64,000 nt of DNA, taken from positions 141,825-205,824 of the forward strand of contig JAETNY010000002.1 in assembly GCA_021771915.1 (NCBI GenBank), in the 5' to 3' direction. The DNA comes from Bacillota bacterium (lineage in GTDB: Bacteria; Bacillota; Dehalobacteriia; UBA4068; UBA4997). The translations under genes and the position numbers were made by a program. Below the pieces are notes generated by a model that had not been told where the DNA came from, made no database searches, and saw nothing but the letters and a program-made list of their open reading frames with translations. Below, in pieces: positions 34,222 to 64,000 of this stretch; position 1 is the first letter of the stretch, and every line of letters starts with the position of its first letter.

Positions 34222-34872
34222 ATGAAGCTTGGTATTGCCGGCACTCCCCTGCCGGATTATGATAATATGACCGACGAAGCCATTGTTGAAATTGCTCGCA
34301 CTGGCGATGTTGATGCACAGGAATATTTGATTAATAAATATAAAAACTATGTGCGTGCCAAAGCGCGGACTTATTTTTTACTTGGCGGTGACAAAGAAGA
34401 TTTAATTCAGGAAGGCATGATTGGCATGTATAAGGCCATTCGTGATTTCCGTAGTGACAAGCTATCCTCTTTCCGCGCCTTTGCGGAACTTTGTATAACG
34501 CGTCAGATTATTACGGCCATTAAGACGGCCACGCGCCAGAAACATATACCGCTGAACTCTTATGTAAGCCTGAACAAGCCAATTTATGACGAGGACTCTG
34601 ACCGGACGCTGTTGGACGTGATAACCGGCAATAAGGTGACCGATCCGGAAGAACTGATTATCAGCCGGGAGGAGTTTACGGAAATTGAAGAAAAAATGGG
34701 GGAACTTTTAAGTTCGCTGGAATGGAAAGTTTTGATGTATTACCTGGAGGGCAAATCTTATCAGGAGATTGCCGAGGATTTGGGACGGCATGTAAAGTCG
34801 ATTGATAACGCTTTGCAGCGTGTTAAGCGCAAGTTGGAAAAATATCTGTCAGACCGCGAGGATTACAAATAG
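34222..34872 (+). CDS. sigH: Sporulation sigma factor SigH
   Basis: Near-identity to Bacillus SigH over YLINKYKNYVRAKARTYFLLGGDKEDLIQEGMIGMYKAIRDF and AFAELCITRQIITAIKTATRQKHIPLNSY. Confidence 0.8.
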   Translation: MKLGIAGTPLPDYDNMTDEAIVEIARTGDVDAQEYLINKYKNYVRAKARTYFLLGGDKEDLIQEGMIGMYKAIRDFRSDKLSSFRAFAELCITRQIITAIKTATRQKHIPLNSYVSLNKPIYDEDSDRTLLDVITGNKVTDPEELIISREEFTEIEEKMGELLSSLEWKVLMYYLEGKSYQEIAEDLGRHVKSIDNALQRVKRKLEKYLSDREDYK

Positions 34873-34942
34873 GCCTACATAAGCGTGCCAATTTCAGCCC
34901 AAACATTAAGAAAATTTATTGAGCGAAAGATTGGAGTATATA

Positions 34943-35743
34943 ATGAAGTTAATTTCAAATAGAATAATAGTCAAAGTAGGAACCTCCACCCTAACTAATG
35001 AACTTGGTAAAAGCAATTTGCGCTCTTTTGACCGCCTGGCCTGCGTTCTGTCCGACGTTCAGAATATGGGCTATGAGGTTATTCTTGTATCCTCCGGCGC
35101 GATTGCCGTTGGCGCCAATAAATTGAATATGGCCTCTCGACCCACGGAAATGCGCTTTAAGCAGGCCGCTGCCGCGGTTGGTCAATGCAGCAATATGTAT
35201 TTATACGACAAATTTTTCAGCGGCTATGATAAAACTATCGGTCAGATTTTATTGAATGCCGAAGATATTGAACAGGAAGAAAAGCGAGAGAATCTGACCA
35301 ACACCTTTAATGCCATGCTGGAAATGGGCGTTATTCCGATTGTAAATGAGAATGATTCGGTCAGCTATACGGAAATTGAGTCAGAAGAGCGACTCTTTGG
35401 CGATAATGATAAACTTTCCGCCGTGGTGGCCGTTTTGTGTCGAGCCAGTCTGCTGGTTATTTTCTCCGATATCGACGGGCTTTATGATAGTGACCCCCGT
35501 CTGCACCCGGACGCCAAACTGATTGAGCGTATAGACCATTTAGATGAAAACGTCTATAAGCTGGCCGGTGGCGCTGGTTCCCGGCGCGGCACGGGCGGCA
35601 TGCGCACCAAGCTGCAAGCCGCAGAACTGGCCACAGTTCAGGGTATTGATGTGGTTATTACCAATGGCCAGCGCCCAGACGACCTCTATAAACTGCTGGA
35701 GGGCAGCAGTGTTGGCACCAGATTTATCGGCGCCGGACGTTAA
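34943..35743 (+). CDS. proB: Glutamate 5-kinase (no PUA domain)
   Basis: RIIVKVGTSTL, VILVSSGAIAVG, IPIVNENDSV motifs. GGAG RBS 8 nt before ATG 34943. Confidence 0.8.
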   Translation: MKLISNRIIVKVGTSTLTNELGKSNLRSFDRLACVLSDVQNMGYEVILVSSGAIAVGANKLNMASRPTEMRFKQAAAAVGQCSNMYLYDKFFSGYDKTIGQILLNAEDIEQEEKRENLTNTFNAMLEMGVIPIVNENDSVSYTEIESEERLFGDNDKLSAVVAVLCRASLLVIFSDIDGLYDSDPRLHPDAKLIERIDHLDENVYKLAGGAGSRRGTGGMRTKLQAAELATVQGIDVVITNGQRPDDLYKLLEGSSVGTRFIGAGR

Positions 35744-35864: not shown

Positions 35865-36317
35865 TCAATTTGATAGTTGTCGCCCCAAAAAGCCGGCCAC
35901 CGTCTGCGCCAGTTTATATTCAACCTCGCTACTTTCCGGCGCTTCCGAATCGCTTAAAAAGATAACGCCCCCCAAAACATCGCCCTCCGCAATAATTGGA
36001 GCCGCCAGTGCCAGCTTATACTTATCTTCTCCTGCCGCCACCGGCACCAGCTTGCCGCCTTTTTGATACTGATAAATCTGCCGGTCTTCCATCAAACGCT
36101 CCAGTTCATTGCTGATGCGTTTCTCACTCAATTCACGGCTTGGCGCACCAGAAACCGCAATAATGGAATCCCTGTCCGCCACCGCAGAAATATAACCCGT
36201 AGTGCGGTTCAGCGTTTCGCACATATGCGCCGCACAGTTGGAAAATTCCCCCATCGGCGAATATTTTTTGAAAATAACCTCGCCGTCTTTGGCAGTAAAA
36301 ATTTCCAGTGGGTCGCC
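35865..36317 (-). pseudogene. spoVT: 3' portion of spoVT: C-terminal GAF-like domain, N-terminal AbrB-type domain missing
   Basis: 150 aa. GDPLEIFTAKDGEVIFKKYSP...AVSG...EYKLAQTVAGFLGRQL aligns residue-by-residue with B. subtilis SpoVT from REGDPLEIF to the end. Fused in frame to the upstream recombinase ORF. Confidence 0.7.
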
Positions 36318-38045
36318 GCTGTTGACAACATTGACAGTAAAGACCTTGTCCGGTCTGTGTGCTGATGACTGGACTATTTTATTTTTTAAGCTATCCTTAC
36401 TGCCTTGCTTAAAATTTACGCTGTTTTCGCCCTCCTCGCTATCCTCAACAGTTCCACAACTCAACAATGTGTCAATATCTGCTTTTAACTGAATATCAAG
36501 ATGGTCTTCATAAACAGTAATCTGCTCAATAATCAGCGCCAAATCGCTTTTATTCAATTTAGGTTTATGCAGAATATCATCAAATACGTCTAATACCGTT
36601 TTAGCGGCTCGATTAACCTGCAACATCTGGTTACGGTCAACAATGTTTCGGTCAATTTGTTTTTCCAGATTTTTTATTCTGTTTAACAGTTCGTTTTCCA
36701 GATCTACATAACTGGCCTCAATAATTTGCTGTTGATCATTCGGCACTTTCATACTGTCTACAATTTTGCGTTTTAACAGAACTTTAAGCTGCTCTTTGCT
36801 CTCTGTCAACTGACTCTCTAGCAAATCAATAGCTTGACCAATATTTTCTTCCTTTTTATCTTGGTCTTTAATAGCGTTATTAAGCTGTTCAATCATTGAT
36901 GCAGAATTTTCTTTCACCAGCTTAATATACCGTTTCAAAAGCTCGTCCAACTTGTCCACACGAGTATGGTGCGAAGTACAGCCCTTTAAGCCTCTCCGAT
37001 GATAAGTGCCGCAGATATAAGCTGGCGCTAAATCCGGCCGGGACATTGAAAACATCGGGCTGCCACAATCACCGCAAACCAAAAAACCCGAATAAGAAGT
37101 TTCATACTTCTTTTCACCGCGATAATTACTTTTGCTGCGCATTTTAAGCTGCTCCTGCGCAACTGTAAAAGTACGATTATCAATAATTGGCGTATGCGCA
37201 TTCTCTAAAACTATATGTTCATCTTCGGCCAAACGCTTATCTTTACCATTAATCCGTTCTCTGGTATATTTTTTTTGACGCAAAGTACCGATATAAAAAT
37301 CATTGGTTATAATTTTAGAAACTGTTATTATGCTCCATTCACGCTTAGATTTTATTTTCGTACTCTGACCATTTAATTCTTTATAGGCAATCTCGTTGGC
37401 TCTTGGAGTTGGCACGCCTTTATCTGTAAGATAGTTGGCAATCTTTTTATATCCCCAGCCATTATTATACAATCTGAAAATCTCTCGCACAACCTCTGCG
37501 GCCGGCGGATCAATCTCATAGGTCATTTCTTTTGTGTTAATAATACGATAGCCATAAGGAACGGCACAAACCCATTTACCATTTTGTTGTCGATTTTTGA
37601 TAACCGTTTTAATTTTTTTGCTTGTATCGGTTACTGGCATTTCATTCATCAAAAACTTGAACTGAATCAACATCCAATCATCTCTGGTTGGATAATCAAT
37701 ACCATCGCCAATAGCAATAATACGAACGTTGGCATCACGAAGCGTTTCCAGCTCATATAAACCCAAACTGTTACGTCTGGAAAAACGGGAAAAATCCTTA
37801 ACAATCAAAATTTTATATGTTCCGTCCATCAATTTAGGACGCAGCCGCTGGTAACCCTCGCGTTGTTCAAACGTATAACCGGAACGATCTCTGTCAATAA
37901 AGAAATCCAGTCTAGCATTTGGAAAATTGCTTTCAACATATTTTTGAATAATCTCTCGCTGATTTTCAATACTTGTATTATCTCTATCCAATTCGGTATC
38001 AACTGAAATTCTGGCATAGGCCGCTATCGTTAAAGCGTCAAACAA
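36318..38045 (-). CDS. Large serine recombinase (ICE integrase). ORF has no own stop and reads through into the spoVT fragment
   Basis: N-terminal resolvase domain (AAYARISVD...SIENQ). Recombinase domain. Zinc ribbon CGDCGSPM...CGTYHRRGLKGC. Coiled-coil. Confidence 0.8.
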
Positions 38046-38116
38046 TATTATTCACTCCTAAACAATATAGTATATATAATATTGTAACATATTATATATA
38101 CTTTGGCAAGAGTTAA

Positions 38117-38347
38117 TTATATATTATTTACCAGCAATGCCGATGTACAATCTAACAAGTTGTGTGTTCCTGAACAAAAAATTGCAACCGTATATTTTTT
38201 AGTTTTATAATTTTTGATAATATCTTTAATAGAATTATCTCTTTCACCTTTCATCAACCAAACTTCTACAACAAATTTTTCGTCATCAACCACAACTTTC
38301 ATTTTGCCACCTCCTTCTATAATTATTGCCCATAACTTGTTAATCAA
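38117..38347 (-). CDS. Small hypothetical protein
   Basis: 76-aa ORF, AT-rich. Confidence 0.2.
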   Translation of the reverse strand: MINKLWAIIIEGGGKMKVVVDDEKFVVEVWLMKGERDNSIKDIIKNYKTKKYTVAIFCSGTHNLLDCTSALLVNNI

Positions 38348-38379
38348 AACTCATACCTAAAATTTTTCCTTAAACAGGA

Positions 38380-38760
38380 TTATATTGTCCTGATTCGGGG
38401 ATTATATCGCCCTCATACGAGGGTTTATACTATCCCCTTTCGGGGAATATATTGCAGGCCGCCCCTGGCGAGGCTGTCATAACTCCGCACTGCCGTATTT
38501 TCGAACAGCGCAGGGTTCTACCGCAAGTCTGTGGGTAGGCGTGAGCAAGTATCATTGTTAGCACTACACTGTTATGGCGGTCAGTTTGCCAAACTGATTT
38601 CCATAGTTTACGCTTATTGCTCGTTCTGATAATAGAAGTCTTGGCGGCGCACTATGCTTCGCTCTGGTGCAGCTTTTGTGCCTGCAATATAAGTTATGAA
38701 GTTGTCAAAGAACTGTTTTATTACATAAGATTTTTATCAGGAAATTTATTCCTCTATAAA
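38380..38760 (-). ncRNA. ORF-free structured leader region, related to the two shorter leader elements
   Basis: GC-enriched compared with its flanks. Nested hairpins (GGGGAT...ATCCCC, CCCTC-ATAC-GAGGG, CCCC-TTTC-GGGG). Shares TTAGCACTACA and CTTCGCT-TGTGCAG with the elements at 44205 and 40684. Confidence 0.3.
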
Positions 38761-38781
38761 TAGCATCTGTTTCTGGCTATT

Positions 38782-39255
38782 TCACACCCTGCTACTAAAA
38801 AATTGTTTTAATTTCTTTACCGATGATCTAATAGATTTAGAAACATTTTGTTGAGCTATTCCCTCAATATCTGCTATCTGCTGTTCTGTCTTGTCCTCAA
38901 CATAATACAGCCACAATCGCCTAAATTGCTTTTCAGTCAAGACGGATTTAATCTTTTCTATAAGTACCTTTCTTTCACCAGCAACCAGATCGCTTAACAA
39001 AATCTGCTCCACAGACGGAGAGAAAGCGTTATCATCTATCTGTTTTTGTAGTTTATTTTTTAAGCGTTTATAACTTTGTTCAGCGTTATATTCCAAACGG
39101 TATTCATTGTCAGACCATTCTTTCCAACGAGCAAATTCTTCCTCACTGGCAAATTCTTCTTTAGTCAGCTTAATATATTCACCAACTGCATTTCTACTTA
39201 CAATAGCCTCTTTATTCTTGTTATTCAAATCGTAATTGCTCTTTTTGTTATACAT
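38782..39255 (-). CDS. Sigma-70 region-4-only DNA-binding protein
   Basis: C-terminus LTEKQFRRLWLYYVEDKTEQQIADIEGIAQQNVSKSIRSSVKKLK is a region-4 HTH. No region 2. Confidence 0.4.
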   Translation of the reverse strand: MYNKKSNYDLNNKNKEAIVSRNAVGEYIKLTKEEFASEEEFARWKEWSDNEYRLEYNAEQSYKRLKNKLQKQIDDNAFSPSVEQILLSDLVAGERKVLIEKIKSVLTEKQFRRLWLYYVEDKTEQQIADIEGIAQQNVSKSIRSSVKKLKQFFSSRV

Positions 39256-39390
39256 AAAAAAATCTCCTTAATCTCAAAATTTCTTATAAATTAGAAACCT
39301 TGAAAATAAGGAGGCGAACGACAGCTCACATAAATACGAAACTGCATAAAGAAAACGAACCCAAATCTTCTGATATTACGATTTGGGCTC

Positions 39391-39579
39391 TTAGATTTTA
39401 CTCATTTGTGATTTTATTATATTGATTATTTTTTCCGTTTGACATTTTAAGCAATAAACAGAAAAGAACACCAGCATAGTTTGTGGATAAATCCCAATAT
39501 TGGTTTTAGCGCCACAGTTTGGGCAACAAAGCCAGTGTAAATTTTTAATTTTATTGCTTTCTTTCAATGGTATAGGCAT
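39391..39579 (-). CDS. Small zinc-ribbon protein
   Basis: 62 aa with CCPNCGAKT...CLKCQ. Confidence 0.25.
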   Translation of the reverse strand: MPIPLKESNKIKNLHWLCCPNCGAKTNIGIYPQTMLVFFSVYCLKCQTEKIINIIKSQMSKI

Positions 39580-39730
39580 TTTTATTTCCTTTCCGGAAGT
39601 ATAATATCAACCCTGCTTTCTCTGTCTGGCCTTTTATAATACTGCTTATTTTTGTTATTCAGAAATGATTTTTGGCCGATGGGAATGGTTGGCTAAAGTA
39701 TATAAACATTCCCATCGACTGGGCAAGCTA

Positions 39731-40075
39731 TTACACAATAAGTTTGCCCAATATATTTGCCAGTGTACTGGTTATTAAACTTGGCATATATTTTTTTAAC
39801 AGGCCTTTTATGTTATAATTTGATTGCTGCATATCGGCCTGCATTCTTTGCAGCATTTGATATTCCGGATCTTCACTATTCAACCGTTGTTGCTGCTCAA
39901 GTAAGGCATTAAGAATATCCTTGGCCTCCGTATCTGTTATATCATTCAGCATTTTAACAGCATTATCAATCTTAACACCATCAAGTTCAACAGCCAAATT
40001 TTGGCCTTTAACACGATTTAATACTTCACTGTTTCCACTAATTGAAGAATTTTTAACTGTAATTTTAACAGCCAT
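39731..40075 (-). CDS. Hypothetical protein sharing an N-terminal motif with the C-terminus of its upstream neighbour
   Basis: VKITVKNSSISGNSEVLNRV resembles KINIKNSQISGNAQILNDLVF of the 40096-40569 product. Confidence 0.3.
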   Translation of the reverse strand: MAVKITVKNSSISGNSEVLNRVKGQNLAVELDGVKIDNAVKMLNDITDTEAKDILNALLEQQQRLNSEDPEYQMLQRMQADMQQSNYNIKGLLKKYMPSLITSTLANILGKLIV

Positions 40076-40095
40076 TTTAATTGCTCCCTTCTATA

Positions 40096-40569
40096 TCAAA
40101 AAACCAAATCATTCAAAATCTGAGCATTACCGCTTATTTGACTGTTTTTAATATTAATCTTAATATTTTGTCCGGCTCTACGGTTCTCAGCCATAGAAGA
40201 AATTAAAACTGCGTAAACTTTATCAAGGAACTCTAAGTCCCTAAATATAAAACTATATGTAACACCAGCATTTGTTAAAATAATCAATTTTCTTTGGCTT
40301 TGAGCTTCATTATTTTCAAAAAACCAACCAGCAATACCCATACCACCCAATAATAATAGACCAAAACCAATTAACGTAAATTTAAATAAACAGATTAAAC
40401 CTATTATGAAAATAGCAAGAGCCCACATAGGAAACGGTATAGATTCTAAAGGAATTGTTGAAATGCTGGAAATATTTGATAGAAAAATTACAGAGTTTTT
40501 CCAAGCCATTGCATTACCAACAATGGATAACTCTGGTGTATTAATTGTTGCTTCTTTTTTCATCATCAA
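40096..40569 (-). CDS. Membrane protein (2 TM) with C-terminal KNSxISGN motif
   Basis: 157 aa; hydrophobic segments plus a motif shared with the adjacent gene. Confidence 0.3.
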   Translation of the reverse strand: MMMKKEATINTPELSIVGNAMAWKNSVIFLSNISSISTIPLESIPFPMWALAIFIIGLICLFKFTLIGFGLLLLGGMGIAGWFFENNEAQSQRKLIILTNAGVTYSFIFRDLEFLDKVYAVLISSMAENRRAGQNIKINIKNSQISGNAQILNDLVF

Positions 40570-40683
40570 TCACTCCTTCTTAGTAATAAACAGCTCAGTG
40601 GCCGGCAGGAATGGTTGGCAAACGGAAATGAATATTTCCACCGGCCTAAAGCCGTTTATATATCATGTTATTCTCGTCTGGTA

Positions 40684-40800
40684 AATAACAGGAGGCGGAA
40701 TTACCAGCGACAGAAACCATATTATACAAGATATGACTTTTGCACAGCTTCGCTTGTGCAGATACAAAGGCTTAAACACCGTTTATTAAACATAAATCGT
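40684..40800 (-). ncRNA. Conserved leader element, copy 1
   Basis: Shares GGCGGAATT..C.GCGA.AG.AACC...TATGACTTTTGCACA...AAAGGCT.AAACA with 44205-44340. Lies ~110 nt upstream of the 40569 start. Confidence 0.35.
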
Positions 40801-40813
40801 TGAATGGTAAAAT

Positions 40814-41317
40814 TTACTTTATAGACAAATTCTGTAATCGTATTATGAATATAACTAATACAATGCATAGTGGTAGCAATAGGAAATACAATTCAGATTC
40901 TGTATCATTAATAATATTAAGGAAATATTGTATCAAAAATCTCTCAGGCAAAGAATGAACTACTGATTCTAATCCATATACATTTAGTAGCACTTCATAT
41001 AGCCATTCAAATAGTACATTTTTAAGTTTTATATAACCGATGAAACATACTATAAAAACTATTATTGACAATTCTCCATAATCCAATGAAAAACTTTTTA
41101 TTGCACCATTAAAACAAGCTTTTATAAAACATACAATAAAATGCATTATTGTTAAGCCAAAAGGCAAAAAGAGTATAATTGCTTGAATTATTATTGTAAA
41201 ATAACTATGCGTATTTGTTATTTCAAAGATAGTTGAAAAAAATTTTACCAGTAATAGCCATACTAAAAAAAATAATATTTTTTTTGCATAACCTTTTTTT
41301 CTGAACGACTTAAACAT
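40814..41317 (-). CDS. Polytopic membrane protein
   Basis: 167 aa, 4-5 TM helices. Confidence 0.3.
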   Translation of the reverse strand: MFKSFRKKGYAKKILFFLVWLLLVKFFSTIFEITNTHSYFTIIIQAIILFLPFGLTIMHFIVCFIKACFNGAIKSFSLDYGELSIIVFIVCFIGYIKLKNVLFEWLYEVLLNVYGLESVVHSLPERFLIQYFLNIINDTESELYFLLLPLCIVLVIFIIRLQNLSIK

Positions 41318-41326
41318 AATATCGAC

Positions 41327-41974
41327 TTAGTCTAAAATTCCTGGTTTGACTTTAACATTAAGCGTTCCTTCATAAGTACCACCAGGTTGTTTTATCGTTA
41401 CCATATAATTAGCTTGAACTGTACCATAAGGCGCATCGCTTGTATAATCTATATTCTCATCAAATGTTAGACCTACTGATTTTCTATGGGGAGCATCTAT
41501 TGGTGCGCTATAATCGCCACCCCAACATAATGTAGCAGATTTATATGTCCCTGCTGCAATTGTGGCATAACCAGACAAATTGGTAATTGAATTATTCGTA
41601 CCTTTACCATCGATCCACGTCATTGTCATCGAAGCTGCAGCAGAAATACCATCTTTTCTATATGTTGAATCTCCTGTTTTAACTTTAACATTAGCGGTAT
41701 ACAAAACAGGGATATCATCATTTATTACATTATTATATAAATTGGCATATAAAGCTGGAACAGGTAACTTAACTACACTGATACTTTCTATTTCCAATGC
41801 AGTTTGTTCACCGTTGTCAGAAATCATATAGGCTTCAATGCCTTGAGCAACTTTTTGTTCAAGTTGCTCTGTTGTTAAATTATTATCAGCAGCCAAAGCT
41901 GGAACACTAACCAGCATACACAAACACAAAATGCAACAAAAAGTTATTACTTTTTTTATACTTAAAGTTTTCAT
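41327..41974 (-). CDS. Secreted/lipoprotein paralogue A
   Basis: Signal peptide MKTLSIKKVITFCCILCLCMLVSVPALA. Shares ASMTMTWIDGxGxNNxITNLxG with its neighbour. Confidence 0.4.
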   Translation of the reverse strand: MKTLSIKKVITFCCILCLCMLVSVPALAADNNLTTEQLEQKVAQGIEAYMISDNGEQTALEIESISVVKLPVPALYANLYNNVINDDIPVLYTANVKVKTGDSTYRKDGISAAASMTMTWIDGKGTNNSITNLSGYATIAAGTYKSATLCWGGDYSAPIDAPHRKSVGLTFDENIDYTSDAPYGTVQANYMVTIKQPGGTYEGTLNVKVKPGILD

Positions 41975-42020
41975 TTTAATTCTCCTTTTTATTTGTACTT
42001 TTTTTCAATTAAAACATTAT

Positions 42021-42647
42021 TTAACTAAAAATTCCCGGTTGAACCTTAACCCTCATAAAATATACAGAACCCTGAGCATTCTCAACACCTACATAATAAT
42101 CAGCTCTTACAGTACCCCAAAGTTCTTTATCACTCGTATAATTAACATCTTTATTAAAGCTTTTACCTACATTCGCTTTATATGGGGCAAGTGAAGTGTC
42201 TTCATAATCAGAACCCCAATATATCCAACCAGAATGGAAACTGCCTTTTGCAACAGTCGTCAGACCGGTTAGATTAGTAATAGTGTTATTAGAACCATTA
42301 CCATCAATCCATGTCATTGTCATTGATGCAGATGCTACAATATTGCAGCAATTAAGTTGCTTATCATTAGTTTTAGTTTTCACAGTAGCAGCATAAATAG
42401 CATATTCTTCATCACCAACCAATCCATACAAACTTGGTATAGGAAGTTTTACAACATCAATACTTTCTATGTCCAATTCAATTTCATCGCCATTTTCCGA
42501 AATCAAATATGCCTCAATATTTTCTTCAATATTTTGTTTAATTTGTTCTGTTTTAGAATCATAATCCACCGCTAAAGCTGGCATAGCCATAGCAAAACAT
42601 AAGCAGAATGCTAACAACCAAGACAACATATTGTGCTTTTTCATCAT
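42021..42647 (-). CDS. Secreted paralogue B
   Basis: Signal peptide ...AMAMPALA. Shares the block ASASMTMTWIDGNGSNNTITNLTG. Confidence 0.4.
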   Translation of the reverse strand: MMKKHNMLSWLLAFCLCFAMAMPALAVDYDSKTEQIKQNIEENIEAYLISENGDEIELDIESIDVVKLPIPSLYGLVGDEEYAIYAATVKTKTNDKQLNCCNIVASASMTMTWIDGNGSNNTITNLTGLTTVAKGSFHSGWIYWGSDYEDTSLAPYKANVGKSFNKDVNYTSDKELWGTVRADYYVGVENAQGSVYFMRVKVQPGIFS

Positions 42648-42804
42648 AGAAAAACACCTCTTTCATAATTTGTTTTTGAGAAGTAAATTCCAATTAATTC
42701 CCCAATCATAACGGCTAAACGCCCCCTATCCTCCCTCCGGCTATAAATTTTCAATCTGTACATGAACAGCTTGCCGTTCTTGATAAATATTTGGTAATTC
42801 TTCC

Positions 42805-42845
42805 CTCTATTATATACACGTAACGAAAAGACCAAAATGTTACAT
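42805..42845 (-). promoter_or_regulatory. Conserved promoter/operator motif, copy A
   Basis: Minus sense: ATGTAACATTTT-N13-GTTACGTGTATATAATAGAG. GTAAC/GTTAC inverted repeat flanks a TATAAT box. Lies ~150 nt upstream of 42647. Confidence 0.45.
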
Positions 42846-42936
42846 AAAAAGTAAAAATTTTTATCTTTTTCATAAAAATATACTTAGCAGAAGATTGTAT
42901 CTACTAAGTATATTTTTTTAGAATGTTTACTGTATG

Positions 42937-44103
42937 TTACTTTATTATAATTGGCACATTTTGTCTAACTGTATATGTTTTAGTTTCATTTTCTGAATTA
43001 TCTCTAATATCAATCAACCATTCAATTTGTAATATATTTTCTTTTAGTAATTCATTCTCTTCATCTGGTTTGTTAAAGTAATCACTATATTTACTAATTA
43101 TGTTAATGAATTGGCCAGGTTGTTTTAGAATAAATTTTTTATTTGGCTCTACTTGAAAACTACGCGCATACTTAATATTAGATTGTATATAGTTTTGTCC
43201 ATATATGGTTGTATTTACATTATCGTATTCTTCAGGAATATCAATAGTATCTAATAAATCATCCATACAATAAGCATATTCAATATAAGTTTTTTTTAAA
43301 TAACTGTTTACCTTAGTATAATTCCAAGCAGTACAAGAACGAGATGTTTGACGCAATTTCAAGCCTGCAACGTAGTAATCTTGTGGATTTGTTGTGTTTA
43401 CGAGTGTAACTAAACAATTCATATTTGCACGATGACCATAAAATAAATCAGAATAATCGATATCAAATTGCAATAATAGAGTATCGCTGTTTTTATTAGT
43501 AATATTTTTATGTTCACTATTAAAGTAACGACAAGCTAATTCTTCTCCGTTACTTCCTACAAGAACATATTTACCAACAGGAGGCTTTTTCCAAATACAC
43601 ATAAATACATCATCAGCAATATTAAACTGCTGTTGTAATTTATAAATATCGATTACTTCTGTCCAGACTTCCAATTTTTTTACATCATCACGACAGCCTA
43701 ATATAATGTAATATGATTGCAGTAATTCTTGTCTATTATTTTTTGTTGTAAAACTACACGCATTTACGTCGGAAGAAAAAATGTCCAACATATTGGTTTG
43801 ATTACAATATAATTTATAAGTATCTTGTGTTTCATCTAAAACAAACTGTAAGTAACCAAAAAGCTTCATTGAGTATTCTTCGCCAACAGCATAGCCCACA
43901 ATAATAGAATCGTCTACTTTTTGTATACCGGCTATCTGAACAGGCATATCTTCTTCCATTTCTCGCCGCACAATTTCAATACACAAATCTTCGGTTATTT
44001 CGTTTTCGGCATATTTAGGTTCATAATTCCAAACAAAATAGCTTATGAGCAGCGCAATTAATACAAATATCATTGCTAAAAACATAAGTTTTTTTCTATT
44101 CAT
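42937..44103 (-). CDS. N-terminally membrane-anchored hypothetical protein
   Basis: 388 aa with one N-terminal TM helix; Cys/Tyr/Asn-rich. Confidence 0.35.
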   Translation of the reverse strand: MNRKKLMFLAMIFVLIALLISYFVWNYEPKYAENEITEDLCIEIVRREMEEDMPVQIAGIQKVDDSIIVGYAVGEEYSMKLFGYLQFVLDETQDTYKLYCNQTNMLDIFSSDVNACSFTTKNNRQELLQSYYIILGCRDDVKKLEVWTEVIDIYKLQQQFNIADDVFMCIWKKPPVGKYVLVGSNGEELACRYFNSEHKNITNKNSDTLLLQFDIDYSDLFYGHRANMNCLVTLVNTTNPQDYYVAGLKLRQTSRSCTAWNYTKVNSYLKKTYIEYAYCMDDLLDTIDIPEEYDNVNTTIYGQNYIQSNIKYARSFQVEPNKKFILKQPGQFINIISKYSDYFNKPDEENELLKENILQIEWLIDIRDNSENETKTYTVRQNVPIIIK

Positions 44104-44204
44104 AATAAACCTCCATTAGTTCTTTTATGTAATTATATATAATTCCAACAACAAAATCAACTTTCACCAACTTTTAATATTGAACTCAAGTACATTGAAT
44201 AATG

Positions 44205-44340
44205 AAAGGCGGAATTGCCTGCGATAGGAACCGTACATAAAAATTTATGACTTTTGCACACTCCGCCTATGTAACAAAAGGCTCAAAACATAAATGTTTT
44301 AGCACTACAAACTGAGCCTATCGCAGGTAAGTTTTGCATA
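44205..44340 (-). ncRNA. Conserved leader element, copy 2, bracketed by an 11-bp inverted repeat
   Basis: CCTGCGATAGG ... CCTATCGCAGG closes a ~110-nt stem. Lies between promoter copy B and the 44103 start. Confidence 0.35.
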
Positions 44341-44388
44341 ACACCAACTTTATAAGTAAAATTTGGGAAAGCAAAAATATATTGTTTC

Positions 44389-44429
44389 TCTATTATATAC
44401 ACGTAACCAAAAATCGAAAATGTTACATA
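44389..44429 (-). promoter_or_regulatory. Conserved promoter/operator motif, copy B
   Basis: ATGTAACATTTT-N13-GTTACGTGTATATAATAGAG. Confidence 0.45.
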
Positions 44430-44560
44430 TAAATTAAAAATATTTTATATTCCTAAAATTTATTTTCAAATCACCACCAGAATAAAAAGATTGCACTTTA
44501 CAGACAAATATCTGCAAAGTGCAATAATAAAATTTCATCATTATCTCATTAATATTTTAC

Positions 44561-44986
44561 TTAAACAGAAAGAGTAATAAACTCTCTGGTATCATAGCCG
44601 CCTTTTTCAGCATAAAAATACACCTTAGCGCGATATTCACAATCACTTTTAGCATTATAATAATTTACACTAGATTTGTAATAACGAGTGTTACTTGATA
44701 ACATATTAGAATAACTAGAAGAACTGTATGTTGCAACAGTACTCCAGGTAGTAGAACCTGACGTTTTCTCCTGGATAAGAATAGTCTGCGCACCAATTAC
44801 GTCCATACTATTCTTTCCATTTATATCAAAGGTTACCGTTACTTTACTATCAGACCTCCTTATTTGCGCAAAACAATCCTCAATATATTCACTAGCCCTT
44901 ACAGTAGCTCCGGCAACATCAGCCATACAAAAAATAACAATCAACAATAAAGCTATTAAAGATATTCTTTTTTTCATAAATTTCAC
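44561..44986 (-). CDS. Small secreted protein
   Basis: 141 aa with signal peptide. Overlaps the anti-sigma stop by 4 nt. Confidence 0.3.
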   Translation of the reverse strand: MKFMKKRISLIALLLIVIFCMADVAGATVRASEYIEDCFAQIRRSDSKVTVTFDINGKNSMDVIGAQTILIQEKTSGSTTWSTVATYSSSSYSNMLSSNTRYYKSSVNYYNAKSDCEYRAKVYFYAEKGGYDTREFITLSV

Positions 44987-45879
44987 TCTCCATAAATTGA
45001 ATTTATCATTTGTTTAGCCTCTTCTAAAGAGAATTTGCCCGTAATAGAACCTTCATAAATTCCGCTACGCCATATTACCTTTTTAATACCCAAATTCTCC
45101 ATAATATAGTATGTTGTACCATACATTTCATATTCTTCAACACCTAAAGTATCCTTTTCATAAAGCGGTTTTTCCTTTCCAGTTAAAGGAAATCTATAAT
45201 TTATGTCTATCGTATTAATACCATTATCTGTTTCTTTATAAAAAGCAGCATATATACTGCCAAAAGAATTATCAGTTGGCTCTGATACTTCAACAGTATT
45301 GGATACATATCCATATGGTATCCACTCAGGAACAAGACTAAGTTCTCCAGCATATTCCGCAACCTTATCTGACAATTCAGTGGTTACATAAACAGGTTCA
45401 ATCCAAAATTGGTCATCGTTCCATCTACCAACTAACTTAACAGGATTATAACCTAAAGCATACGCTGTAACAGTACCAGCACATATCAATAAAACAAGAA
45501 CCGCCGCGACACTGGCAAATCTGCGCCAATATTTTTTCAATTTATGCAATACAATAATTTTGGCATTATCTAATTTCGGAACAACATTATCATCACCAAA
45601 ATCATTATAAAAATCGTAAACATCTTGGGCTTCATCAATGTAAGGCAAACAATTCTCCTTAAATTCAGCCACAGCGTTGGCTTTTTTTTGCTCCCAATCA
45701 ATTTGATTATCTTTTTGGCGTTCCGATAACAACTCAATAATATAAGATATTGCCTCCGGCTCCATCTGTTTACCCTCCGGGGCGTTCAAATCGGCTCGCA
45801 GATAGGCCTCCAAAATGTCGCTGTCAATATTGTCGAATTTGCTATAATCTACACGCCCCTTATCTTCGACTTTCGACAT
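44983..45879 (-). CDS. Anti-sigma-factor-like membrane protein (DUF4367-like extracytoplasmic domain)
   Basis: Cytoplasmic N-domain, single TM (RRFASVAAVLVLLICAGTVTAYALG), ~150-aa outside domain. Immediately downstream of the sigma gene. Confidence 0.45.
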   Translation of the reverse strand: MSKVEDKGRVDYSKFDNIDSDILEAYLRADLNAPEGKQMEPEAISYIIELLSERQKDNQIDWEQKKANAVAEFKENCLPYIDEAQDVYDFYNDFGDDNVVPKLDNAKIIVLHKLKKYWRRFASVAAVLVLLICAGTVTAYALGYNPVKLVGRWNDDQFWIEPVYVTTELSDKVAEYAGELSLVPEWIPYGYVSNTVEVSEPTDNSFGSIYAAFYKETDNGINTIDINYRFPLTGKEKPLYEKDTLGVEEYEMYGTTYYIMENLGIKKVIWRSGIYEGSITGKFSLEEAKQMINSIYGE

Positions 45880-45886
45880 AGCTAAA

Positions 45887-45930
45887 CCTCCTCTCTATAT
45901 TATATACACGTAACGAGAAATGCAAAATGT
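45887..45930 (-). promoter_or_regulatory. Conserved promoter/operator motif, copy C
   Basis: Same motif, ending directly at GAGAGGAGGT (RBS) and ATG 45879. Confidence 0.45.
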
Positions 45931-45950
45931 TACATAAAATTTTAAGTTTT

Positions 45951-46478
45951 TTATTTAATTGTTCTTTCATCTATCAACTTTTGCAATGCTATCTTTGCTC
46001 TACGCATTCTTTGTCTGCAAGTATTATGACTAATACCATATTCATCTGCTATTTCTTTTTGTGAATAACCATCAACGGCAAATTTTTTAAGCATTTCATA
46101 TTCTTTAGTTTTCGCTAAATCACCATATAACAAATCAAGGTCATCCTCAGAAAATTTAGTATCAGGATAATTATTTATCCAGTCTTCGATCGGAATATTC
46201 ACAAGAAATTTACTTAAGTTATCTCTAACGCGCCAATAATTATATATGTTTTTTCGTAAAATATTTATAAGGAAAGCGCCTGGTTTAGGGTGCTTAATTA
46301 ATTCATCAATTTTCCTACAAGCGATTATAAGCGTATCCTGTACCAAATCTTCTGCTGCCAAAGAACCCTTCATCATCTTGTCAGCATATTTACATAAATT
46401 TTCATATTCCATTTTATACAATGCCAATATAAAATTTTGCTCATCAAGTGTAAGTTTTCTTGATTCATCTTTTTTCAT
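45951..46478 (-). CDS. Sigma-70-family (ECF-like) sigma factor
   Basis: Region 2 (DLVQDTLIIACRKIDEL...NIYNYWR) and region 4 (GYSQKEIADEYGISHNTCRQRMRRA). Confidence 0.6.
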   Translation of the reverse strand: MKKDESRKLTLDEQNFILALYKMEYENLCKYADKMMKGSLAAEDLVQDTLIIACRKIDELIKHPKPGAFLINILRKNIYNYWRVRDNLSKFLVNIPIEDWINNYPDTKFSEDDLDLLYGDLAKTKEYEMLKKFAVDGYSQKEIADEYGISHNTCRQRMRRAKIALQKLIDERTIK

Positions 46479-46521
46479 AATAGCAACCCATTACTTCATT
46501 TTTTATTTTTTAGCTGCTTGT

Positions 46522-46872
46522 CTATATTTTAGCACGTTTCCGTTGCTTTGCCAACTCTTTCAACATACATCTAACCATATTCTTGATAATTTCCAAATCT
46601 TGCTCTGGAGCTTTATTTAACATAGCAACAATATCATTAATATCACTGGCCTGATTTTTTTCTTCACTAAGCAAATTATTAATATTAACGCCTAAGCCGT
46701 TTATCAGTTTGTACAAGCTTTCTAAACTCATTGCTTTATTGCCACACTCAACATTTGCATAAAAAGATGTAGATACTTGAAGTTTTGATGCTAATTCTTC
46801 CTGCGTAAGCCCACATTTTTTGCGATACTTACGCAAGTTTTTACCAAATAACTTATTAAGTTCTTTAGACAT
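46522..46872 (-). CDS. XRE-family HTH regulator
   Basis: LRKYRKKCGLTQEELASKLQVSTSFYANVECGNKAMSLESLYKLINGL. Confidence 0.6.
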   Translation of the reverse strand: MSKELNKLFGKNLRKYRKKCGLTQEELASKLQVSTSFYANVECGNKAMSLESLYKLINGLGVNINNLLSEEKNQASDINDIVAMLNKAPEQDLEIIKNMVRCMLKELAKQRKRAKI

Positions 46873-47121
46873 TGCAATATCACTCCAAATACTTTATCTA
46901 TTAGAATATATTATACACTTCTTAAGAAATAATTTGAATTATCTAAAAGAATTGCTTTTATTTCTATTAGGATATACATTGATATTTATAATATCTTGAC
47001 AGAAAAAATTTAATTTTATGTGTTTGTATGTTGCCTTATTTTATAGTAGACTTTACCATAAACAATCAAAAAATATATAGACTTTTTGCCAACCTTGTGC
47101 TAAAATAATTTTAGAGGAGAA

Positions 47122-48126
47122 ATGCTAATGAAAGTTGAATCGCCAATCGCTCAAATTATCCGTACCGCAACAGAACAAAATATAAGTAATGCAGACGAGA
47201 GCGAAGCTAATGATAATCAGAAAACACTTTTCGACTCTTCCTGCAAAAGAATATTATCTATTAAAATTTTTCTGGCTTGGATAATGAAAGCTTGTATGGA
47301 AGAATACAAAGACTGTGATGTAAACGATATTGCCGAAAAATATATTGAGGGAGAGCCGGAAATAAGCACAACTCCGGTATTGCCAGACGAAAATATCCTC
47401 ATAAATGGCACAGCCAATGAAGATACCTCAACCAAAGAGGGAACTATTGTGTATGATATTCGTTTCTATGCGGCAGCTCCTAAAAGAGATGGCTTAACCA
47501 GACTGATTGTCAATGTGGAGGCTCAATCACAATGGAATCCCGGCTATCCTCTGATTATGCGAGGACTGTTCTATTGCTGCCGGATGATTTCAGCGCAATA
47601 CAACCGGGAATTTAATAAATCACATTACGAAAAGATAAAAAAAGTTGTAAGCATTTGGGTTTGTAAAAATCCAACAGCAGAACGCCGCAATACCATAAAT
47701 CAGTATTATATAGCAGAAAAAAATCTGGTTGGCAGCGCCAAAGAAGAGCGTGCTCATTATGATTTACTGTCGGTTTTCATAATCGGGCTTGGCCGCAAAG
47801 AAGATAAAAATTATGAAGGTATTTTAGAATTGTTGGAGGTTATCCTCTCTACCAAAATAGAAAACGAAGAAAGAGAAAGAATATTACAGAAAAAATTCGG
47901 CATTATTATGAGTGAGGAAATGAAAGGAGAGTTTGAAATTATGTGTAATCTCAGTCAGGCAATAGAAGATAAAGGCATTGAAAAAGGTAAATTTGAAGCA
48001 ACACTTTCTAATCTTCAAAGTCTAATAAACACATTAAGTTTATCTACTGAAAAAGCAATGGACGTTCTTAATATTCCACAAGATGAAAGAACCAAATATA
48101 CCCCCCATATTAAACACGTTAACTAA
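47122..48126 (+). CDS. Rpn/YhgA-like PD-(D/E)xK recombination-promoting nuclease (putative transposase)
   Basis: YDIRFY...RLIVNVEAQSQW matches the Rpn-family D...(I/V)E(I/A)Q core. Confidence 0.55.
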   Translation: MLMKVESPIAQIIRTATEQNISNADESEANDNQKTLFDSSCKRILSIKIFLAWIMKACMEEYKDCDVNDIAEKYIEGEPEISTTPVLPDENILINGTANEDTSTKEGTIVYDIRFYAAAPKRDGLTRLIVNVEAQSQWNPGYPLIMRGLFYCCRMISAQYNREFNKSHYEKIKKVVSIWVCKNPTAERRNTINQYYIAEKNLVGSAKEERAHYDLLSVFIIGLGRKEDKNYEGILELLEVILSTKIENEERERILQKKFGIIMSEEMKGEFEIMCNLSQAIEDKGIEKGKFEATLSNLQSLINTLSLSTEKAMDVLNIPQDERTKYTPHIKHVN

Positions 48127-48192
48127 AATATTATTTAATTATTCAAATTAAGTAAATTAGCCAAGAATCTACGTTTTTAACAATATCTATTA

Positions 48193-48238
48193 AAAAGAAA
48201 GTATTAAGAAGCAAAAATCTTAATACTTTCTTTTTTAT
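48193..48238 (+). terminator. Strong Rho-independent terminator
   Basis: Perfect 16-bp stem AAAGAAAGTATTAAGA / TCTTAATACTTTCTTT followed by TTTT. Confidence 0.7.
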
Positions 48239-48367
48239 TAAATAACAAAAAACTATTGGTTTTTTTTATTTTATATACTAAAATGTAGATATAATGGATA
48301 TTATTACCAAAATGAAATAATAATATCGAATTATAGTATAGTTTATATAAAAGGATATTAAGATGAT

Positions 48368-49075
48368 ATGAGTCAGCCACAACCTGAACAAAACGAAAAA
48401 AAATTAAACTGTCTTAAAGAATTAATTACAATAATAATAACACTAATAGTATTTAGTTATTCTAATATTTTTGCAGTTCCTCAAATTAAATTTTACCAAG
48501 AAAATGATAATGATGTTTACAAGGATGTTTACTTGGTAAAAAATCTTGTAGGTACAGACTTTGCCGGTGTATCAATGATAACACATCCACAAATTTTAAT
48601 AACGTATAAAGATAATGTTATTCTAATTGCACATTTAAATAATTATTATGAAACAGAATATTTAATTTTTGATTCTGATAATAAAGCTATTGGTGTTAAA
48701 ACAAATCAGGAGTATTGCACGGCTTTAATACAATATATCCGAACGCAAATACTAGAGCAGATAGGTAATAGCTTGGGTAAACAAATTCAACAAAATATTG
48801 AATCAGATTTTAGAATATATGATAGTATCCTTGCTGGAATACAATATAAAAATATGCTAATTTCTGAAAGAAAAAAAATGTGTATTATTGAAGATGGTGG
48901 AATTGCAATAGGATATACTGATATAAAAAATAAAATAATTTCTAATAGATTGTATGAAATGGAAATAGATTTGGCAAATGATGAACAAGTTATCTATATA
49001 GATTCGAAGGTTTCCCAAATAATAAATACGGTATCTAATGAAATATTAAAATTATATAAAGAAACAAAAGAATAA
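48368..49075 (+). CDS. Membrane-anchored hypothetical protein
   Basis: 235 aa, one N-terminal TM. Extremely AT-rich. Confidence 0.3.
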   Translation: MSQPQPEQNEKKLNCLKELITIIITLIVFSYSNIFAVPQIKFYQENDNDVYKDVYLVKNLVGTDFAGVSMITHPQILITYKDNVILIAHLNNYYETEYLIFDSDNKAIGVKTNQEYCTALIQYIRTQILEQIGNSLGKQIQQNIESDFRIYDSILAGIQYKNMLISERKKMCIIEDGGIAIGYTDIKNKIISNRLYEMEIDLANDEQVIYIDSKVSQIINTVSNEILKLYKETKE

Positions 49076-49098
49076 GTTTTGAAGGTTGGTATATTATT

Positions 49099-50172
49099 AT
49101 GATAAATAATCATACACACCATTCTGACCAGCATCGCCGTCGTCGTTTAACACCATTTGGAAAAGTAATAAAATTTTTTTTAATAGTAGTTAGTTTATGG
49201 TTTTTGCTTTTTATTATTCTTAAAGTAAAAAATGCATTTGCTAACGATGATTATAACTATTTAAAAACAGAAATTGCATCACAAACAGATATCAATGAGC
49301 TGTTTAAAAGGCGAGAAAAAAATAATAGTAATAGTGATCCTGATATAACTATTTTGTACAAACTTCATATTTCTGAAGATGTTGTCCTTTCTAATACAAC
49401 ACTCAATGATAATAAACAGTTTTTTTCAAGTATATATGCTGATGGTAAATACAAAAGCCTTGAACCAAAGATAACAGACAGCAACTACTACTTTATATTT
49501 AATACACCACATCTTAAAAAAGCATCAGATAGAAAAAATAAGTATAATGAAAATCAAAATATTCCCAACTACTATTTTTATGGAAACGAACTCAACAATG
49601 AAATTTTAAAAGAACCAAAAAATGAAGATCCTAAATTGCCATTTAATGTTCGTATGAAAATCGCTGCTGATGGAGTACACACCTTTGAATTATTTTTAGA
49701 AAACATTGATCGCAACATAAATAATTCATCTTCGCCGGTGATAATTAACACTGATTATATTTGCCTTATTAACGGAAAAGTATACTGGAAGTTTGCTAAT
49801 GATTTCTTGTATGGAGGAGAAGAAGAAGTACAACCATATCTGAATAGTTTCCTTATTAACGCTTATACCTGTTTTGAAATTGGTTTGGAATATATTGAAG
49901 AAACAGATAAATATGCAAATAAGTATTATGCTTTGTTTTTGTATTATAAAGCAAATACAGCTGAAAGAATATTAAAAATAATGGATGAAGAAAAAATGAA
50001 TGGAATAAATATAGACGAAGCCTTATTTCAAAAGCTAGGAGAAACTTCGCTTTCTTGTTACTCGGAAGCTCAACAATTATTTTTTAACGATTTCTACGAA
50101 AAAGAAGATTATATTCAAAGTAATATACAAAATGGACTTAAAACTATTAATGGATATGGATTTAGCAATTAG
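49099..50172 (+). CDS. Membrane-anchored hypothetical protein
   Basis: 357 aa. N-terminal His/Arg-rich tail then one TM. Extremely AT-rich. Confidence 0.3.
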   Translation: MINNHTHHSDQHRRRRLTPFGKVIKFFLIVVSLWFLLFIILKVKNAFANDDYNYLKTEIASQTDINELFKRREKNNSNSDPDITILYKLHISEDVVLSNTTLNDNKQFFSSIYADGKYKSLEPKITDSNYYFIFNTPHLKKASDRKNKYNENQNIPNYYFYGNELNNEILKEPKNEDPKLPFNVRMKIAADGVHTFELFLENIDRNINNSSSPVIINTDYICLINGKVYWKFANDFLYGGEEEVQPYLNSFLINAYTCFEIGLEYIEETDKYANKYYALFLYYKANTAERILKIMDEEKMNGINIDEALFQKLGETSLSCYSEAQQLFFNDFYEKEDYIQSNIQNGLKTINGYGFSN

Positions 50173-50289
50173 CTATATTGATAAAATTATAATTGACCAG
50201 TCAAGCAAGGTAAATAATAAATCTAATTTTTTTGAGAGAAATTAATGAAGATTTTTTAAGTTTTCAGCTTTATAATTACACGACTAACA

Positions 50290-53539: not shown

Positions 53540-53881
53540 TTACTTTATTTTTGCCAGCCCCTTTAACAGCTTATCCGCCATATCCCAAAGGCGGTCAAAG
53601 TTTTGCCGCAAATCCTCTAAATCTTCAGCATAAAAACGCCCGGTTTTGTGAACCCTTTTCGTCAGCTGATTTAGATTATTAGAGGAGCGCCGGAGCAGAG
53701 AGATTAAATCCCGCAACTCCGGCACTTCCAGATTAATAATATATCCGTCAATAGCCATTTTCCGCAAATAGGCCGCCATATTAGAAGTTCCCAGCAGCGC
53801 CATCTTCCGCTCAATAATTTGCCGCTCCTCTGGCGTTACCCGGAATTTAAGCTGTACTTCACGCTCTCTTTTTTCAAACAT
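53540..53881 (-). CDS. mobC: MobC-like relaxosome accessory protein
   Basis: 113 aa, ribbon-helix-helix-like N-terminus (KFRVTPEERQIIERKMALLG), directly upstream of the relaxase. Confidence 0.55.
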   Translation of the reverse strand: MFEKREREVQLKFRVTPEERQIIERKMALLGTSNMAAYLRKMAIDGYIINLEVPELRDLISLLRRSSNNLNQLTKRVHKTGRFYAEDLEDLRQNFDRLWDMADKLLKGLAKIK

Positions 53882-63946: not shown

Positions 63947-64000
63947 CAAATAAATTCCTCCTCGCATATAGATTAAATGCCGCCCTGCGTTTAATTCGCA

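Follow-up and report, generated by a model that had tools for sequence, protein, structure and literature searches.

A 64,000-nucleotide stretch of a Bacillota bacterium genome (contig JAETNY010000002.1 of assembly GCA_021771915.1; this whole stretch is referred to as the window) carries, at positions 35865 to 38045, an open reading frame (ORF) in which a large serine recombinase (LSR) runs in frame into the C-terminal part of the sporulation regulator SpoVT. Positions 36313–36314 very probably mark the right attachment site (attR) of a large conjugative-type mobile element, which its own LSR inserted at the GA of spoVT codon 32. Judged from comparison of sequences, the ORF is an insertion junction and not a domain fusion. 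Our best estimate is that this represents an ordinary, reversible mobile-element insertion that acts as a population-level on/off switch for sporulation. Interruption of a sporulation gene by an LSR-driven element is already known. What is new here is the use of a forespore regulator as the target, the very wide distribution among gut Clostridia, and the location of the attachment site of the excised element (attP) within the recombinase ORF, which gives two isoforms. No report linking spoVT with a recombinase, an attB site (the empty target site), or a prophage was found in the searched literature.

The hybrid ORF encodes 726 amino acids (aa) from a TTG start that is preceded, 8 nt 5′, by an AGGAG motif. 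Its parts and the adjoining host flank are as follows.

35865–38045, minus strand: hybrid ORF at attR, with LSR residues 1–576, the shared G-D-P core, SpoVT residues 34–180, and the native spoVT stop.
36315–38045, minus strand: element-derived part of the ORF, with catalytic, recombinase, zinc-ribbon, and coiled-coil domains (about residues 1–530), a variable linker (about 531–565), and the P-arm-encoded DKVFTVNVVNSG.
36313–36314, minus strand: crossover dinucleotide GA, the first two bases of the spoVT Asp32 codon.
35865–36312, minus strand: host spoVT 3′ part, with the B′ arm, the rest of the AbrB-type domain, the GAF-like SpoVT_C domain, and the stop codon.
34222–35743, plus strand: host flank, with a sigma-70-family gene (34222–34872) and a glutamate 5-kinase gene (34919–35743), in the order found downstream of intact spoVT in empty-site contigs.

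Pfam assigned Resolvase (PF00239) to residues 7–158 of the product, Recombinase (PF07508) to 182–301, Zn_ribbon_recom (PF13408) to 318–374, and SpoVT_C to 600–724. This is the domain order of an LSR, in which the resolvase-type catalytic domain comes first, then the recombinase domain, and then a zinc ribbon into which a coiled coil is inserted; long helices at residues 363–492 of an AlphaFold model match that insertion. In the same model, SpoVT_C (residues 600–726) is predicted confidently, with a predicted local distance difference test score (pLDDT) of about 70–85, and the preceding residues 529–596 score below 50. The NCBIfam equivalog TIGR02851 (spore_V_T) covers only profile positions 27–179/180, positions 1–26 being missing, and scores 137 bits against a cut-off of 235.9, so that the hybrid ORF fails as a full-length SpoVT (AbrB-type N-domain plus GAF-like C-domain). 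In tblastn, Bacillus subtilis SpoVT residues 28–176 align to window positions 36326–35874. Collectively, these results bear out a first-pass annotation of this DNA, which had described the upstream part as a complete LSR and the C-terminal codons as the GAF-like C-domain of SpoVT. That annotation had also reported the SpoVT N-terminal exon to be absent from the window, and neither tblastn nor motif scans in six frames detected an AbrB-type N-terminal spoVT exon anywhere in the 64 kb. It placed the start of the SpoVT alignment at GDPLEIF, in the middle of the AbrB-type N-domain; there is indeed a break there, but the G-D-P codons are common to both junctions. The guanine-plus-cytosine (GC) content also changes at the junction, from about 0.48 on the host side to about 0.30–0.38 on the element side.

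The evidence that carries the insertion comes from contigs of the same species. An intact allele was predicted by placing the N-exon from the most similar intact SpoVT in front of the C-part in the window and was then looked up by exact sequence. This predicted protein (P0391) exists exactly, on 82 contigs, and a one- or two-residue variant of it (P0392) is found on 45 contigs. Same-species contigs with P0391 (L221–L223) carry an intact 180-aa spoVT and match window positions 36317 to 29865 at 99.7–99.8% identity over 6453 bp without a gap; the downstream genes that they share with the window include those for glutamate 5-kinase, a sigma factor, and DUF951. These contigs provide the empty-site relative with which a comparison had been recommended in the first-pass annotation. 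The empty site is preceded on its 5′ side by type IV pilus genes and a gene for a 179-aa protein (P0420). Among 21 contigs with P0420 as the upstream neighbor, 15 have an intact spoVT and six have the left junction (attL), in which a 56–61 aa ORF matching the AbrB/MazE domain family is followed by element genes. Three same-species left junctions (L231, L232, and L233) belong to three different elements. Joining the L232 left junction to the right junction of the window at the GA, in silico, yields P0391 exactly. Two complete small elements with both junctions (L059, 10,624 bp, and L200, 10,013 bp) likewise leave a SpoVT of 180/186 aa when they are excised in silico. An intervening element is recognized by a sporulation ORF that is interrupted and is restored by precise excision, and such restoration was found in silico for P0391, L059, and L200. 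Since one species supplies an empty site, a left junction, and an exact reconstitution, the boundary is an insertion break and not a natural fusion. The earlier claim that spoVT is split by a serine-recombinase-driven element, whose recombinase ORF reads in frame into the SpoVT C-domain, is thus upheld.

Three variants of this reading were considered and rejected. First, the insertion is not fixed in the species; it had seemed so while the intact allele sat in a cluster with an odd 357-aa representative. Second, the SpoVT_C part does not travel with the element, as its synonymous divergence (dS) is host-like and it matches the empty site at 99.8% identity. Third, the element does not bring a replacement C-part that keeps spoVT intact, as the reading frame at attL continues for a tail of about 25 aa before it reaches a stop.

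The recombinase belongs to a large family. A scan with one genome per species returned at least 589 relatives; the best 80 were taken for the fusion point, and all 80 extend through query residues 723–726 and are therefore fused at the same residue. Their hosts include Oscillospiraceae, Acutalibacteraceae, Faecousia, Flavonifractor, Dysosmobacter, Lawsonibacter, Intestinimonas, and some Lachnospiraceae, and the recombinases at this spoVT site in at least 80 species are about 50–92% identical. The top 120 protein homologues (655–741 aa, 61–92% identical) all have the same four domains, and the junction peptide always reads ...FTVNV(I/V)xx-GDPLEI(F/Y). The two halves, however, have discordant histories. 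P0108 and P0114 are 94% identical in the recombinase but 47% identical in SpoVT_C; for P0048 and P0056 the values are 94% and 52%. Between the window and its nearest relative (L021), dS is 0.81 in the recombinase part and 1.69 in the SpoVT_C part (nonsynonymous divergence of SpoVT_C, 0.006); the flanks share 76% identity, and the interiors of the two elements show no relationship. Because of this discordance, the family represents a conserved target specificity rather than a conserved fusion gene. The other half of the site is also abundant. One scan of a metagenome collection with a left-junction pattern returned at least 120 contigs, and the true number is higher because the pattern misses the P′ variants of the window's own species. 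About 115 of 121 matches carry an intact spoVT N-exon (residues 1–33) and in the few others this exon is truncated or degenerate; in every match the frame continues into a short tail. The first-pass annotation had held that recombinase–GAF fusions with this very boundary, if conserved in unrelated genomes, would speak against an insertion. Such a family does exist in the literal sense, but the reading as an insertion stands, given the discordant halves and the abundance of matching left junctions.

The carriers at spoVT codon 32 vary and comprise elements resembling integrative and conjugative elements (ICEs), such as that of the window, 10-kb mobilizable elements, and prophage-flagged elements. 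The 10.6-kb element of L059, for example, is mobilizable and has a relaxase, an AAA_25 protein, and an AbiE pair. A search of IMG/VR with an alignment (A1) found eight contigs flagged as viral or prophage, none of which contains a left junction, and a search of IMG/VR with a single protein gave no match. No close plasmid relative was found in phage and plasmid collections, and two apparent phage relatives (MT839487 and MT836658) were rejected, as both are bacterial junction contigs. An 18.3-kb contig ends exactly at the junction (L011/L020), and walking to its other end gave only more element DNA.

Several further observations concern the same junctions. Two recombinase::SpoVT_C junction contigs (L061 and L091) are binned as "Escherichia coli" and "Bacteroidaceae bacterium", which is probably mis-binning. 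A recurrent degenerate N-exon (M[SP]GTATGIVRRVDDLG...) is fused to the tail in L116, L137, L155, L166, L167, and L187, sometimes with further substitutions, and these may be older, decaying left junctions. The 7.7-kb contig L182 has two left junctions on the same strand, at 2984 and 7048 (about 4 kb apart), the second after a degenerate N-exon, and the arrangement may be tandem or nested. In L150, L167, L171, L176, and L208, the spoVT N-exon, core, and tail are followed 0.4–1.2 kb downstream by a complete spoVT at what seems to be the native locus (2014–2235 versus 2846–3073 in L171). In these solo-attL contigs, the spoVT 5′ region is duplicated at 72–93% identity, with a small cargo ORF between the copies and no recombinase; one possibility is that a circle with a foreign attL was inserted in the Campbell manner. 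In P0168, a SpoVT of 312 aa from a 2304-bp contig, part of the protein is duplicated internally, and the second copy opens precisely at LEIY, directly behind the G-D-P core; aberrant recombination at the att core could have produced it, or it could be an artefact of assembly.

A second, unrelated element splits spoVT at codon 10–11 (between ...RRI and DDLGR...). It is seen in L016 (4826–9779, junction at about 9950), L017–L019, L118, L175, and L191, has three tandem serine recombinase genes (561, 569, and 518 aa), and leaves 155-aa "SpoVT" calls (P0131–P0133). In L118, L175, and L191, this junction occurs together with a codon-32 left junction, so that both elements can occupy one spoVT. From these junctions, spoVT is a hotspot for at least two recombinase lineages.

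The crossover in the window can be placed at the dinucleotide GA from two differences. On the left, the window reads GGC-GA and the empty site GGG-GA, and this G/C difference before GA sets the exchange to its right. On the right, the attL of L231 reads GA-ACCG and attB reads GA-CCCA, which puts the exchange on the left side of the base following GA. The sites compared are ...CATATTCGTGAGGGG-GA-CCCACTGGAAATT for the empty-site attB, ...GTTGTCAACAGCGGC-GA-CCCACTGG for the attR of the window, and ...GAGGGG-GA-ACCGTTATTG for the attL of L231. The reconstructed attP is an imperfect palindrome, TGTCAATGTT-N9-GGC-GA-CCC-N9-AACATTGACA, centered on GA. These features are those of LSR attachment sites, namely short sites, an attP with an imperfect inverted repeat, and a central non-palindromic dinucleotide common to attP and attB. 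Of the products expected from recombination, attL, attR, and attB are seen in sequence data. One arm of attP is found within the window:

36315–36338, minus strand: P arm of attP, ACTGTCAATGTTGTCAACAGCGGC, conserved in 87 junctions and mirror-symmetric to the P′ arms at attL.

Its repeat is TGTCAATGTT at 36336–36327 on the minus strand, or AACATTGACA at 36327–36336, and the P′ variants in the window's species are AACATTGCCA. The conserved "FTVNVIS" motif of the hybrid proteins is the P-arm DNA read as protein. A palindrome within 36318–36345 had been proposed earlier as the att core; this interval is the P-arm half-site instead, and the crossover GA lies at 36314–36313.

The reconstructed attP lies within the recombinase ORF, so that the two recombination states encode two isoforms. 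Non-extended relatives (P0247) end at the equivalent of about residue 530. In the spoVT-targeting clade, the extension consists of the variable linker, the P-arm codons, the G-D-P core, and a tail that runs across attP. The recombinase had been described as having no stop codon of its own. It does have one, about 28 codons past the core at the far end of the element, where it is seen only in the excised (attP) configuration; ORFs in this configuration, with recombinase, core, tail, and stop, are found in more distant relatives (P0243, P0251, and P0255). In the integrated state, the recombinase joined to SpoVT residues 34–180 gives the 726-aa product, and the 33-codon spoVT N-exon joined to the tail gives a product of 56–61 aa. 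If the far end is of the L232 type, the enzyme of the excised form would be 607 aa, comprising the recombinase, GDP, and a tail of about 25 aa. Since the fused ORF is the sole recombinase ORF when the element is integrated, we infer that the SpoVT_C-fused isoform carries out excision and that integration falls to the isoform with the tail, which only the excised circle encodes. The most frequent length of the tail is 25 aa (24–27 aa in 87 of 120 tails), and four of its positions are conserved, F11 in 101 of 116 tails, A/G14 in 98, L18 in 66, and R21 in 104. The consensus of the tail DNA shows a codon-like periodicity. The conserved positions lie 30–65 nt from the crossover, a distance that a typical serine-recombinase att site does not reach, which favors a constraint acting on the peptide.

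SpoVT is a forespore regulator, and a Clostridioides difficile spoVT mutant makes phase-dark immature spores and no heat-resistant spores (PMC3789822). The integrated element would abolish SpoVT because the AbrB-type DNA-binding domain is cut in half and, by analogy with C. difficile, carriers would fail at the formation of mature spores for as long as the element is integrated. The insertion would nevertheless be reversible because exchange by serine recombinases is conservative and mobile elements must excise before transfer. Several points weigh against this interpretation. First, the far end of the window's own element lies outside the window, and the same-species contigs that represent the far end share no DNA with the window. 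Second, no excised (attP) form of the spoVT-targeting clade was found in IMG/VR with two attP patterns, and there was no attP among the 121 matches to the attL pattern. Third, the AlphaFold model of the fusion is of low confidence overall (mean pLDDT 57.7), too low for fold searches. Fourth, the ratio of nonsynonymous to synonymous polymorphism (pN/pS) in the tail is 0.73 overall, a sign of weak codon-level constraint that is weakly informative, and the in-frame continuity, which has a chance of about one in three and would then be inherited, is not in itself evidence of function.

The last of these points would suit a dead-end knock-out, that is, a loss-of-sporulation mutation in gut lineages that no longer need spores, with the fused ORF and the tail being neutral. 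The halved AbrB-type domain and the fact that many carriers are gut Oscillospiraceae and their relatives fit such a mutation as well, and the in-frame state could be inherited chance. We regard this explanation as possible but doubtful. Elements with relaxases and differing cargo occupy the site in many species and are thus mobile, and moving needs excision. Furthermore, most sampled contigs of the species are empty, three different elements use the site, neither half of spoVT has decayed in about 200 junctions, and the length of the tail, its four conserved positions, and the codon-like periodicity of its DNA have been maintained.

A different fate of the insertion would be programmed excision in the forespore, in which spoVT is rebuilt during sporulation as its sigma-F/G promoter fires, and the circle rides into the spore and re-integrates at germination. 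There are precedents for sporulation-timed excision driven by LSRs (PMC4191935). The junction ORFs are intact in 87 attR and about 115 attL sites, with no decay of either spoVT half, and excision would be exact by construction, as the in-silico joining indicates. The spoVT promoter faces the P′ end, and the N-exon::tail product would be expressed from it; by eye, the region upstream of the empty-site spoVT has a GCATA...GACTA arrangement that resembles forespore sigma promoters. However, the known cases all concern mother-cell genes, in which excision spares the germ line (PMC4191935), and the promoter-like site of the recombinase is of the housekeeping type. No universal gene that might serve as a sporulation-controlled directionality factor was found just inside attL, the best cluster (a protein of about 122 aa) being present in 13 of 57 loci. 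The insertion is polymorphic (six of 21 contigs) with near-identical flanks, as expected of a recent mobile insertion, and the two attP patterns had no match in IMG/VR. We therefore consider programmed excision unlikely. An elaborated form of it seems more improbable still. Here the N-exon::tail peptide of 56–61 aa would be produced in the forespore from the sigma-F/G promoter of spoVT and, by providing the missing tail in trans, would set off excision in that compartment at the moment when spoVT is required. The circle would be packaged in the spore and re-integrate on germination; the tail isoform would be the integrase and the SpoVT_C isoform the excisionase or a latent form.

A stable recombinase–GAF fusion gene unrelated to any insertion might be read from the four shared domains and the constant boundary in all top 120 homologues and in 80 species. 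This explanation is refuted, with hardly any probability left to it, by the same-species empty site and attL with exact reconstitution, the independent phylogenies of the two halves, the GC break at the junction, and the coincidence of the boundary with a palindromic att site whose other half lies beside the spoVT N-exon in at least 120 contigs. Although metagenome contigs often break inside the element, an assembly chimera of a mobile element and spoVT can be dismissed, as the identical 726-aa protein occurs on 11 independent public contigs (ENA, NCBI, and Logan) and the junction is also present in isolate genomes such as those of Flavonifractor, Dysosmobacter, Lawsonibacter, and Intestinimonas.

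Compared to known systems, the preferred reading of a reversible mobile-element insertion has both shared and distinct features. Like skin with SpoIVCA in sigK, SPbeta with SprA in spsM, vfbin in spoVFB, vrin in spoVR, gin in gerE, and yin in yabG, which are mobile or ex-mobile elements, the spoVT element has an LSR located at one end and interrupts a sporulation ORF that conservative recombination would rebuild exactly. The described intervening elements are all found in mother-cell genes, and an element that excises only in the mother cell is retained in the genome of the spore (PMC4191935). In contrast, spoVT encodes a forespore-expressed regulator, and the logic of mother-cell excision thus does not apply; the first-pass annotation had drawn the same distinction, and the literature agrees with it (PMC4191935, PMC3789822). 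The spoVT carriers also differ in being active-looking ICEs or mobilizable elements in a minority of the population and in having attP within the recombinase ORF.

The window recombinase is about 29% identical to TndX of Tn5397 over 88% of its length, which is a resemblance only, and like TndX and TnpX (Tn4451) it is borne by conjugative or mobilizable elements of Firmicutes. TnpX uses a GA crossover. The central GA at the spoVT crossover, likewise a resemblance only, is also the hallmark of TndX, which alone performs both integration and excision, for which it is "required and sufficient" (PMC4430133). Unlike TndX and TnpX, the spoVT clade is strictly specific for one spoVT codon and is extended at the C-terminus by about 75 aa, which take the ORF across attP.

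Recombination sites inside phage or element genes have been described elsewhere. The SSV-type "suicidal" archaeal integrases have the recombination site inside the recombinase ORF, which is split on integration (PMC7253208). The att site of the spoVT element lies similarly within its recombinase ORF. The SSV-type enzymes, however, are tyrosine recombinases whose gene is split in two, whereas the spoVT element exchanges only the last 25 or so codons and keeps the conserved domains on one polypeptide. In mycobacteriophage BPs, attP lies inside the repressor gene, and the integrated and free states encode different C-termini. The attachment site of BPs and its relatives is tied to an integration-dependent immunity system (PMC4557955). 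There it is the repressor that is altered and the integrase is a tyrosine recombinase, whereas in the spoVT element it is the recombinase that receives a different C-terminus, a complete folded domain contributed by the host gene. The Listeria phages A118 and U153 in comK affect a different host process, and their attP has not been reported inside the integrase ORF. The comK prophages undergo reversible excision ("active lysogeny").

The remainder of the window on the far side of the recombinase consists of element DNA with the following features.

38046–64000: inserted-element body, which runs off the window and includes sigma and helix-turn-helix regulators in addition to the genes below.
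38081–38109, minus strand: sigma-70-type promoter-like site (TTGCCA, 17 nt, TACAAT, with TG) 5′ of the recombinase start; a consensus match only.
38117–38347, minus strand: small ORF of 76 aa directly 5′ of the recombinase, with no Pfam match.
50353–51612: IS110 transposase.
52115–53440: relaxase.
53540–53881: NikA/MobC.
53885–54703: DUF3848/3849.
54719–62110, minus strand: 2463-aa SNF2/methylase protein with Eco57I-type methylase, SNF2/ResIII helicase, and Helicase_C domains.
62156–63967: topoisomerase III.

The first-pass annotation had called the element an ICE. A relaxase and NikA/MobC are present, but no type IV secretion genes were found in the 27.7 kb of the element inside the window, past the end of which the element continues; it may be an ICE or a mobilizable element. 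The 2463-aa protein adjoins DUF3848/DUF3849, the relaxase, and topoisomerase III. Homologues of the 76-aa ORF (...VEVWL...Y.V..F.SG..L...T..L) are found at this position in 31 of 83 related loci, some of which have recombinases that are only 50% identical, and its product could be an accessory or directionality factor. At about 25 other loci, the position of this ORF is taken by a conserved protein of about 205 aa (MKNGRPFGKDYFDELLERIRE...). A block of very low GC content (0.24–0.36) extends from 38100 to 50200, followed by the IS110-family transposase; it consists mostly of ORFs with no Pfam match and may be a secondary acquisition within the element. It contains a PD-(D/E)XK-like ORF (47122–48126) that is distantly similar to a far-end gene of a different spoVT-inserted element (L233).

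These findings have several implications. The spoVT element offers a natural system in which the enzyme has different isoforms in the integrated and excised states, which is relevant to the control of directionality in recombinases for genome engineering, and its reconstructed attP/attB pair is well defined. If the exchange of C-termini truly acts as a state sensor or timer, this would be the first intervening element of the germ-line compartment, and its enzyme would be the first serine recombinase to take its direction from whichever att configuration encodes its C-terminus. The element also breaks the rule that sporulation intervening elements occur only in mother-cell genes. One recombinase clade hits a single spoVT codon in at least 80 species of gut Oscillospiraceae and their relatives and is present in six of the 21 sampled contigs of this species, which suggests that a reversible genetic switch for sporulation, and hence for transmission and persistence, is common in the gut microbiota. 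Such a switch may explain isolates that do not sporulate in culture although they have complete sets of sporulation genes.

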